Sequence record: PQ571307 | Strand: one strand, 5' to 3' | From: Shigella phage SF1-1 | Length of the DNA stretch: 64,000 nt | In this document: positions 34,956 to 35,750 of the stretch, piece after piece | How the letters are laid out: each line of letters begins with the position of its first letter | How positions within the stretch are numbered: position 1 is the stretch's first letter | Notes under the pieces: model-generated | What the model saw: only the letters and a program-made list of their open reading frames with translations | Database searches by the model: none | What the model was told of the DNA's origin: nothing | Program-made: the position numbers and the translations under genes

Positions 34956-35750
34956 TTGAGCAAGTTGAACACACTTGATCAATATTACACTAACCCCGCT
35001 TATGCGGGGTTCTTATGTGATAAGATCAAAGAAATTTTTGGAGAGGAAGCTAACTACGTAGAACCATCTGCGGGAGAAGGAGCTTTCTCTTCTTGTTTTA
35101 AAAACATAACTTCTTTTGATGTTGACCCTAAGTTTGAAGATTGTATTGAGGCAGATTTTTTAGCTCAATCTGTTGAGTCTGTTGGTAGTGTAACTGCTTT
35201 TGTCGGTAATCCTCCATTTGGAAAAAATGCTAGTCTTGCCATTAAATTCTTTAACCATTGTGCTGAAATGCTGGATAACGAAGGTGGTATTTGTTTTATC
35301 TTGCCTCGCACATTTCAAAAAATCTTTTTTGCACACAAACTAAATCCCCATATGCATCTTCTTTACGAAGAAGAATGTCCAAAAGGATCTTTTATTCTTC
35401 ATGGAGAACCTTGGGATGTTCCTTGTGTATTCCAGATATGGATTAAACGCAACGAGAAGCGTTCTCCCGTTGTTTTAGGAGAGAATCGACTATTCGTATT
35501 AGGTAACAGTAAAGACTACGATATAGCCGTTAGGAGAGCGGGAGCAAGTGCAGGTAAAGTGTTATCAGAAGAAGATTCTTTATCTGAAGCATCTACCTAT
35601 TTTTTAAAAGCCTTGACTTCTGATCTTAAAACGCGTATCATTGAGGCTTACCCGTTACTTAAAGCTGAAGCTAGTAAAACTGCGGGAGTAAGAAGTTTAA
35701 GTTTAAAAGAACTTCAGTGGGTTCTGGAGAACATTAGAAAGGAGGAATAG
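34956..35750 (+). CDS. N6-adenine (amino-type) DNA methyltransferase, orphan
   Basis: Motif X-like DQYYTNP, SAM-binding motif I EPSAGEGAF, catalytic motif IV VGNPPFG; no adjacent restriction endonuclease apparent. Confidence 0.7.
   Translation: MSKLNTLDQYYTNPAYAGFLCDKIKEIFGEEANYVEPSAGEGAFSSCFKNITSFDVDPKFEDCIEADFLAQSVESVGSVTAFVGNPPFGKNASLAIKFFNHCAEMLDNEGGICFILPRTFQKIFFAHKLNPHMHLLYEEECPKGSFILHGEPWDVPCVFQIWIKRNEKRSPVVLGENRLFVLGNSKDYDIAVRRAGASAGKVLSEEDSLSEASTYFLKALTSDLKTRIIEAYPLLKAEASKTAGVRSLSLKELQWVLENIRKEE

Follow-up and report, generated by a model that had tools for sequence, protein, structure and literature searches.

An orphan adenine methyltransferase of the M.CviQI family in Shigella phage SF1-1, with a predicted role in protection of GTAC sites

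Here, we describe a methyltransferase (MTase) gene in a 64,000-nucleotide (nt) stretch of the genome of Shigella phage SF1-1 (PQ571307; this whole stretch is hereafter called the window), where it lies between the gene for a small protein, ORF143, and that for a family-A DNA polymerase. Judging by sequence homology and a structural model, its 264-amino acid (aa) product is a gamma-class N6-adenine DNA MTase of the M.CviQI family. We infer from sequence comparisons that the enzyme may be catalytically active, specific for GTAC, and protective, and the reading that we favor, with moderate confidence, is that of an active, S-adenosylmethionine-dependent orphan GTAC N6-adenine MTase which shields phage DNA from GTAC restriction. 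A first-pass annotation of the window had proposed an orphan adenine MTase with an anti-restriction function; this interpretation is supported, and all of its computationally testable parts held. Over 3 kb around the gene, identity is 99.5% with Escherichia phages EF1-1 and vB_EcoM_DE16 and 98.4% with phAPEC8, and we therefore assign the window to Phapecoctavirus (Stephanstirmvirinae).

The key to the predicted specificity is a characterized relative. Fukuyo et al. (PMC4357717) reported that M.CviQI of chlorella virus NY-2A produces 5'-GTm6AC-3' (m6A, N6-methyladenine) and that its expression in E. coli blocks R.PabI, and gave the primers with which the M.CviQI coding region had been amplified from NY-2A. 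One locus (L158) of the 80 viral loci with the best-matching relatives of the phage protein resides on a contig of 368,683 bp and contains both primers, once each and with zero mismatches (4944-4963 on the plus strand and 5828-5847 on the minus strand). Because these exact matches bracket the homologous open reading frame (ORF), 4986-5816, we identify the latter as M.CviQI. In a BLASTP comparison, the phage protein and M.CviQI display 32% identity and 53% positives over 259 aa (E 2e-43), the alignment running from residue 4 to residue 253 of the phage protein. Thus, the similarity extends into the C-terminal domains, which have the motifs DVPCVFQIW, RRxGxxxGKV, and TAGxRSxS in common; to homologs linked to restriction-modification (RM) systems, the C-terminal domain of the phage protein is ~33% identical.

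The sequence motifs and the predicted fold are consistent with this assignment. The first-pass annotation had recognized an amino-MTase by the motifs DQYYTNP, EPSAGEGAF, and NPPF in the ORF at 34956-35750, all of which are present as stated, and the identification is borne out by the alignment of motif IV, the gamma-class fold, and full-length homology to M.CviQI. In particular, a check set beforehand, namely whether NPPF aligns with motif IV in a profile alignment, gave a clear answer: it does align, its counterparts being NPPY in M.TaqI and NPPF in METTL5. In a profile search against PDB sequences, EPsAGeGsF and GNPPFG of the family correspond to EPACAHGPF and GNPPYG of M.TaqI, whereas LDQYYT and NPPFG correspond to LEQYPT and NPPFG of METTL5 and Ta1320; a single-sequence search of the PDB with the MTase yielded nothing. 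The order of the elements, that is, motif X, motif I, motif IV, and a C-terminal domain, is that of the gamma class. Across 54 diverse homologs, E36, P37, A39, G40, G42, D55, N85, P86, P87, and G89 are invariant, and D8, Y11, T12, and F88 are at least 90% conserved. In the same alignment, conservation extends to C-terminal residues R193, R194, G196, G200, T242, G244, and S247, which is unusual for an MTase; these fall within the family-wide motifs RRxGxxxGK (193-201) and TAGVRS (242-247). The type II MTase model PDLC03255 of PADLOC matches residues 21-254 (profile positions 15-250 of 269; 3.6e-36), and a further PADLOC model, PDLC03256, matches at 5.6e-28.

The AlphaFold model (mean pLDDT 93.7, pTM 0.88) consists of a seven-stranded Rossmann core up to approximately residue 165, followed by a small alpha/beta domain. 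Foldseek searches against the PDB ranked M.BseCI, a type I HsdM, CamA, and M.TaqI at the top. Structural alignments cover 234 residues for M.BseCI, 249 for MmeI, 220 for M.TaqI, and 228 for CamA, and therefore the additional C-terminal domain of the model, too, resembles DNA adenine MTases. Hence, the predicted protein combines a class I Rossmann fold with a likeness to DNA adenine MTases that reaches beyond the core.

The genomic neighborhoods of the homologs link the family to restriction. In Poseidonibacter ostreae, an ORF of 199 aa follows the MTase homolog, and neighbor clustering combined with a profile search started from this ORF uncovered a partner with the PD-(D/E)XK nuclease fold. 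The partner lies directly beside the MTase at 22 of the 79 genome loci from bacteria or archaea, 20 in tandem and 2 convergent, with two of the tandem copies present as fragments only. It is also found in 18 of the 80 viral loci, including that of M.CviQI itself. Given this adjacency in both bacterial and viral loci, the family represents the MTase half of a type II system, and its nuclease, by virtue of its position next to M.CviQI, is presumably of the R.CviQI type. A nuclease family missed by Pfam, NCBIfam, and PDB sequence searches can now be tied to GTAC through this adjacency. In two loci, nuclease fragments accompany an intact MTase (L020, 6767-6967; L063, 6770-6973), an apparent decay of the restriction gene that yields orphans.

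The phage MTase is an orphan with respect to this partner nuclease, because all six reading frames of the 64-kb window, searched with the partner profile, gave no match (best E 0.96); the adjacent cognate endonuclease gene that characterizes a type II RM system is thus missing from the window. The earlier claim of an orphan without a cognate endonuclease therefore stands with respect to the nuclease of the family.

Independent evidence pointing to GTAC comes from the composition of the genomes that carry the gene. We calculated the ratio of observed to expected counts (O/E) for the palindromic tetramers of the window using maximal-order Markov expectation. GTAC is the lowest of the 16, with 54 sites versus 209 expected (O/E 0.26, z -13.6), while GATC, AGCT, TGCA, and GCGC are at expectation. 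There is no GTAC site in the MTase gene and there are two in the polymerase gene (36866 and 37504); the longer GGTACC occurs three times in the window (15743, 30875, and 36865). The 80 viral loci mentioned above, each of which encodes a homolog (carriers), were then compared with 120 control viral loci retrieved through an arbitrary 14-mer, the two sets being alike in guanine-plus-cytosine content (0.38 versus 0.37). Pooled GTAC O/E was 0.44 in carriers (rank 1) and 0.78 in controls (rank 6), and the per-locus medians were 0.42 and 0.78, respectively (Mann-Whitney p 6e-14, a value that overstates the evidence, as kinship among the loci renders them non-independent). Of all 136 strand-symmetric tetramers, GTAC was the sole outlier, with a carrier-to-control ratio of 0.56, the next being 0.87. 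Whole genomes follow the same trend: Justusliebigvirus alia, a 148-kb member of the same subfamily as SF1-1 that contains no MTase gene, ORF143, or partner nuclease anywhere, has a GTAC O/E of 0.78 (rank 7), versus 0.56 (rank 1) in a whole Vequintavirus genome, which is a carrier. The former served as the non-carrier because the first 50 kb of phi92 lack the polymerase region. Orphan copies with neither ORF143 nor the nuclease beside them have a GTAC O/E of 0.43. Bacterial loci are only mildly low in GTAC (0.73 with and 0.80 without the nuclease) and are uninformative on the site. Such a GTAC-specific signal is hard to explain unless GTAC is the concern of this family.

The gene itself is real and intact, its conservation being far beyond chance, as attested by the highly confident structural model, the invariant residues, and its spread: in tblastn searches, it was found in 227 phage records, in 64 of them at 95% identity or more, and with a profile of 54 members, 1585 cluster representatives were retrieved at E<=1e-30, the majority of which are stand-alone proteins 250-290 aa in length. 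Its arrangement (Table 1) suggests expression together with replication functions. The TTG start sits 4 bases 3' of an AAGGAGG sequence, and the last base of the TAG stop is the first base of the polymerase GTG, the single shared base (35750) accounting for the overlap noted in the first-pass annotation; in phAPEC8, the gene is annotated with identical start, stop, and one-base overlap. A sigma-70-like promoter is predicted upstream, and a "putative host dependent promoter" is annotated at the equivalent position of phAPEC8. From this promoter, no terminator-like site was found until 38488, so that promoter, ORF143, MTase, and polymerase likely form one transcription unit. Accordingly, the proposed co-expression with the polymerase is well in keeping with the one-base overlap, the polymerase ribosome-binding site (RBS) inside the MTase gene, the upstream promoter, and the uninterrupted stretch beyond it. 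The description of the gene as wedged between primase-helicase and polymerase was accurate on the polymerase side only, since the promoter and ORF143 intervene on the other.

Table 1. Coordinates of the MTase gene, its motifs and expression signals, and neighboring features in the window
Feature	Position	Strand	Remarks
Primase-helicase gene (Toprim + DnaB_C)	32645..34423	+	Upstream context
Sigma-70-like promoter, TTGACA-17 nt-TATACT	34453..34481	+	11/12 consensus match only; putative
ORF143	34515..34946	+	143-aa basic protein; phrog_9938, "unknown function"
RBS of MTase gene, AAGGAGG	34945..34951	+	Read from sequence
MTase gene	34956..35750	+	264 aa, TTG start, TAG stop; predicted M.CviQI-family gamma-class N6-adenine DNA MTase
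Motif X region, DQYYTNP	34977..34997	+	Residues 8-14; aligns with LEQYPT of METTL5/Ta1320
Motif I, EPSAGEGAF	35061..35087	+	Residues 36-44; S-adenosylmethionine (AdoMet)-binding loop; aligns with EPACAHGPF of M.TaqI
Catalytic motif IV, NPPF	35208..35219	+	Residues 85-88; immediately C-terminal to predicted strand 81-84
Small C-terminal domain	35451..35747	+	Approximately residues 166-264; presumed DNA-recognition domain
RBS of polymerase gene, AGGAGG	35740..35745	+	Within 3' end of MTase gene; read from sequence
Family-A DNA polymerase gene	35750..38347	+	865 aa, GTG start; PF00476 (DNA_pol_A) 1.4e-13; phAPEC8 annotation
GTAC sites	1..64000		Count of 54; predicted methylation targets

In the mechanism that we propose, a host-type promoter would drive ORF143, the MTase, and the polymerase together, and translational coupling of the MTase to the polymerase would allow nascent phage DNA to be methylated as it is synthesized, most likely at the adenine of GTAC on both strands. 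Packaged genomes would then reach the next host already refractory to GTAC-directed restriction, be it by PD-(D/E)XK enzymes resembling R.CviQI or by PabI-type glycosylases, the phage copy having lost the nuclease of the family. Such an anti-restriction role would agree with the GTAC-specific depletion of the carriers. M.KpnI makes GGTm6ACC, and GTAC methylation should also protect against KpnI (GGTACC); this is a point of relevance, as Klebsiella is infected by phapecoctaviruses such as ZCKP1. A reported "exceptional RM sensitivity" of these phages was considered as a possible contradiction of a protective methylase and set aside, since the panel of systems tested (EcoKI, EcoCFT_I, EcoRI, EcoRV, EcoP1_I, and EcoCFT_II) includes no GTAC enzyme.

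Several observations weigh against an active, GTAC-specific, protective MTase. At 32% identity, the phage enzyme need not share the specificity of M.CviQI. A Pfam scan of the protein gave only Eco57I (PF07669) at 15.7 bits, below the gathering cut-off of 25.3 (E 0.016), an NCBIfam search gave nothing, and PHROG 5172, to which the protein belongs, is labelled "unknown function". Profile searches place the ribosomal RNA (rRNA) m6A enzymes Ta1320 and METTL5 nearest among solved structures, with a match over the N-terminal half only. In our search of the literature on phages of the phAPEC8, rV5, and Vequintavirus groups, no methylome, digest, or enzyme assay was found, and methylation goes unmentioned in the rV5 genome paper. 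The invariable presence of ORF143 suggests that the MTase may not act alone. Finally, the depletion of GTAC is indirect and partly paradoxical as evidence, given that full protection should relieve site loss. A virus might both methylate and avoid GTAC if methylation were incomplete or late, if the pressure preceded acquisition of the gene, if methylation-dependent enzymes were at play, or if the phage itself carried a GTAC-directed activity. Whatever the cause, carriage of the MTase family and avoidance of its site clearly coincide in unrelated viral DNA totalling hundreds of kilobases. Simple reasoning would predict the reverse, and the coincidence deserves explanation.

As an alternative, an active N6-adenine DNA MTase of the M.CviQI family might recognize a sequence other than GTAC, with the depletion reflecting shared ecology or ancestry. 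MTases at ~32% identity often differ in specificity, the C-terminal domain is only ~33% identical to that of RM-linked homologs, and sites protected by a resident methylase are usually undepleted, as GATC, AGCT, and TGCA are in the window. Nevertheless, the C-terminal motifs are kept throughout the family, M.CviQI included, and GTAC alone among the 136 tetramers separates carriers from controls, a contrast that recurs within one subfamily; we thus regard a different target as rather unlikely. An RNA N6-adenine MTase of the METTL5/COG2263 type, acting on host rRNA or on phage or host transfer or messenger RNA, would account for the profile matches to METTL5 and Ta1320 and for the "predicted RNA methylase" labels at JGI. 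That match spans only residues 4-127, however, falling short of whole-length family membership, and RNA MTases align structurally over ~150 residues of the Rossmann core, as opposed to 220-249 for DNA MTases. Moreover, the homolog M.CviQI is an experimentally proven DNA MTase, relatives are paired with proteins of a restriction enzyme fold, the PADLOC type II model matches over nearly the full length, and the EPSAGxGxF form of motif I is that of TaqI-like DNA enzymes, all of which makes an RNA substrate very improbable. Motifs of the (D/N/S)PP(Y/F) form occur in N4-cytosine enzymes too. A catalytically dead relic would have a precedent in chloroviruses, which hold at least one non-functional orphan MTase gene (PMC7019647). 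Yet the NPPF form and the characterized homolog are adenine-specific, no catalytic or cofactor-binding residue varies, and 64 phage genomes retain the gene at 95% identity or more, with a further subfamily retaining it at 54%, so that we give an N4-cytosine enzyme or a relic hardly any credence.

A different possibility is that the MTase and ORF143 constitute a two-component module whose function is not passive anti-restriction. The MTase might, for instance, label phage DNA as self while a GTAC-directed effector carried by the phage, be it ORF143 or another protein, attacks unmethylated DNA of the host or of competitors; or ORF143 might be a subunit that activates or targets the MTase. Homologs of ORF143 stand beside the MTase in every locus where they were found: upstream in phAPEC8-like phages and five other viral lineages and, in inverted order, directly downstream in rV5 (gp097). 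In an unrelated metagenomic phage, the counterpart directly 5' of the MTase is 28% identical (E 2e-11). A scan of viral contigs with an ORF143-type profile gave 6 loci, the MTase abutting in 6/6. The upstream slot of ORF143 is the one used by the nuclease elsewhere, and among the 80 viral MTase loci, 9 have the ORF143 type, 18 the nuclease, none both, and 53 neither. The module is located among nucleotide-metabolism and replication genes. Chloroviruses, in which restriction and modification genes are adjacent, use their nucleases to degrade host DNA (PMC7019647), and self-inflicted damage would account for the loss of GTAC from carriers. Against such a module, ORF143 has no nuclease motif or invariant acidic cluster and no similarity to the partner nuclease or to PDB, Pfam, or PADLOC entries, and orphans devoid of either neighbor are equally depleted of GTAC; furthermore, adjacency on its own is no proof of interaction. 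We consider it quite unlikely that the pair represents a novel kind of two-component module in large myoviruses, with ORF143 in place of the restriction enzyme, either as a new effector directed at GTAC in unmethylated DNA of hosts or rivals or as an obligatory subunit of the MTase. Were this the case, the extreme GTAC depletion of these phages would be the scar of its carriage.

Homologs of ORF143 are mostly basic (pI >8 in 7 of 9; range 5.1-10.0) and share the signature FD[IV][SA]PS[FY]TKGxGRxK, with no conserved acidic cluster. A profile search against PDB sequences and searches of Pfam and PADLOC returned zero matches for ORF143, and the idea that it might be a diverged form of the partner nuclease was rejected (hhalign probability 0.2%; no PADLOC, Pfam, or PDB-profile match). 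ORF143 may be a subunit, a regulator, or an effector; it is the sole part of the arrangement that might be new biology. The viral contig L153 has two copies of the MTase family ~2 kb apart (1825-2631 and 4899-5804), the second of which is preceded by an ORF143-like gene. In the metagenomic phage L008, Dam-type (PF02086) and C5-cytosine (PF00145) MTases at 2079-4075 lie a few kilobases 5' of the ORF143-MTase pair, giving three MTases within one nucleotide-metabolism module, and in L095, a Dam-type gene is located directly 5' of the pair.

Beyond phapecoctaviruses, tblastn matches include rV5-like Vequintavirus phages of another subfamily (~54% identity) and distant copies in some Felixounavirus, Pseudomonas phage, and cyanophage genomes. 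Orphan copies also occur in prophages, as in Leclercia, where the gene is ~2.5 kb 5' of the terminase gene, and in large phage-like contigs; the Leclercia prophage copy had no DNA-level match among 5,426 complete E. coli genomes. Relatives are likewise encoded by viruses of eukaryotes, namely in contigs of giant-virus metagenome-assembled genomes (L118, L122, L130, and L156) and in chlorovirus NY-2A. In GenBank, the gene is labelled "putative DNA N6-adenine methyltransferase" in phAPEC8, rV5, and many relatives, elsewhere "hypothetical protein", and once "DarB-like anti-restriction" (LR597654); the adenine MTase label given by the first-pass annotation is thus the database label and was already known.

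Other features of the window merit mention. Immediately 5' of the primase-helicase gene are three glycosyltransferase-like ORFs (29782-32354), one belonging to phrog_2456 and two paralogs (315 and 314 aa) to phrog_7162. The first of the three has a weak match, below the cut-off, to PF20691 (TET-associated glycosyltransferase; E 1e-3) and another to phrog_842 (T4-type beta-glucosyl-HMC glucosyltransferase; 1e-5). These ORFs could be a second route of DNA modification in this phage. Directly 3' of the polymerase gene, an HNH endonuclease ORF (38377-38955; phrog_953, 3.4e-68) looks like a homing-endonuclease insertion absent from phAPEC8, the polymerase stop and the next ORF common to both being separated by 241 nt in phAPEC8 versus 808 nt in the window. 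Neither this nor another ORF of the window was retained as the cognate enzyme of the MTase, as the partner profile matches nothing there. Many relatives, among them EF1-1, anhysbys, ZCKP1, and ESCO5, have a polymerase match that falls into two pieces (~3320 bp versus 2586 bp), which indicates an insertion of ~735 bp (an intron, intein, or endonuclease) that is not present at 35750-38347 of the window. Some 6-bp palindromes are missing or very rare in the window, namely CTGCAG (0 versus 12.9 expected), GGATCC (0 versus 9.1), CGATCG (0 versus 8.1), and CCATGG (1 versus 8.5), and other low tetramers are AATT, TATA, CATG, and CTAG. In the 11-kb locus L006 surrounding the distant homolog of Salmonella phage SP2 (Felixounavirus), GATC is absent (O/E 0.00) and thus far more strongly avoided than GTAC (0.60).

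As annotated, the gene would pass for a routine orphan phage MTase. New here are the connection to a characterized enzyme, from which a target site can be predicted, the recognition of a nuclease partner, the signature of GTAC avoidance in carriers, and the obligatory small neighbor ORF143. If the favored reading of a protective GTAC MTase is correct, the DNA of phAPEC8-like and rV5-like phages would carry GTm6AC and resist cleavage of the CviQI, PabI, and KpnI types. These groups include widely used therapeutic and model coliphages, and such resistance would bear on host range prediction, cloning, and engineering.

Comparison with known systems places the phage enzyme closest to M.CviQI, with which it shares a similar size (~265-275 aa), the order of motifs, the C-terminal motifs, and a viral origin. 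Unlike the phage gene, which travels with ORF143, the M.CviQI gene is convergent with that of a nuclease-fold partner, presumably R.CviQI; the host is an alga rather than enterobacteria, and for the phage enzyme the GTAC specificity is a prediction. With the gamma-class enzymes of solved structure, M.TaqI, M.BseCI, CamA, MmeI, and HsdM, sequence similarity is not significant (E 0.4 for M.TaqI). The recognition domain of M.TaqI comprises ~180 aa, that of the phage protein being smaller, at ~100 aa. METTL5 and Ta1320 (COG2263) differ in their length of ~200 aa, the lack of a C-terminal domain, the RNA substrate, a motif I of the form DLGCGxG, and the absence of any link to restriction enzymes. 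DarB of phage P1 exceeds 2000 aa, contains a helicase domain, and is packaged in the virion. Residues 5-121 of the phage protein have weak similarity to the long family phrog_9133 (E 1.5e-7), whereas the protein as a whole, at 264 aa and with the MTase domain only, is not of this very large MTase-helicase type. Many homologs have precomputed matches to the domain of plant EDM2 (PF26055, Mtase_EDM2), not reproduced in our own Pfam scan of the phage protein and 7 homologs; this domain has been described as N6-adenine methyltransferase-like (PMC7529245), and EDM2, unlike the phage enzyme, is a large multidomain nuclear protein. Phage orphan MTases in general, such as T4 Dam and the Dam and Dcm enzymes of Drexlerviridae, resemble the phage MTase in being stand-alone proteins of lytic phages with no nuclease and a presumed protective role. 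The phage enzyme differs in being of the gamma rather than the alpha/D12 class, in having GTAC rather than GATC as its predicted site, and in the retention of its gene, along with that of a small partner, within the replication operon.

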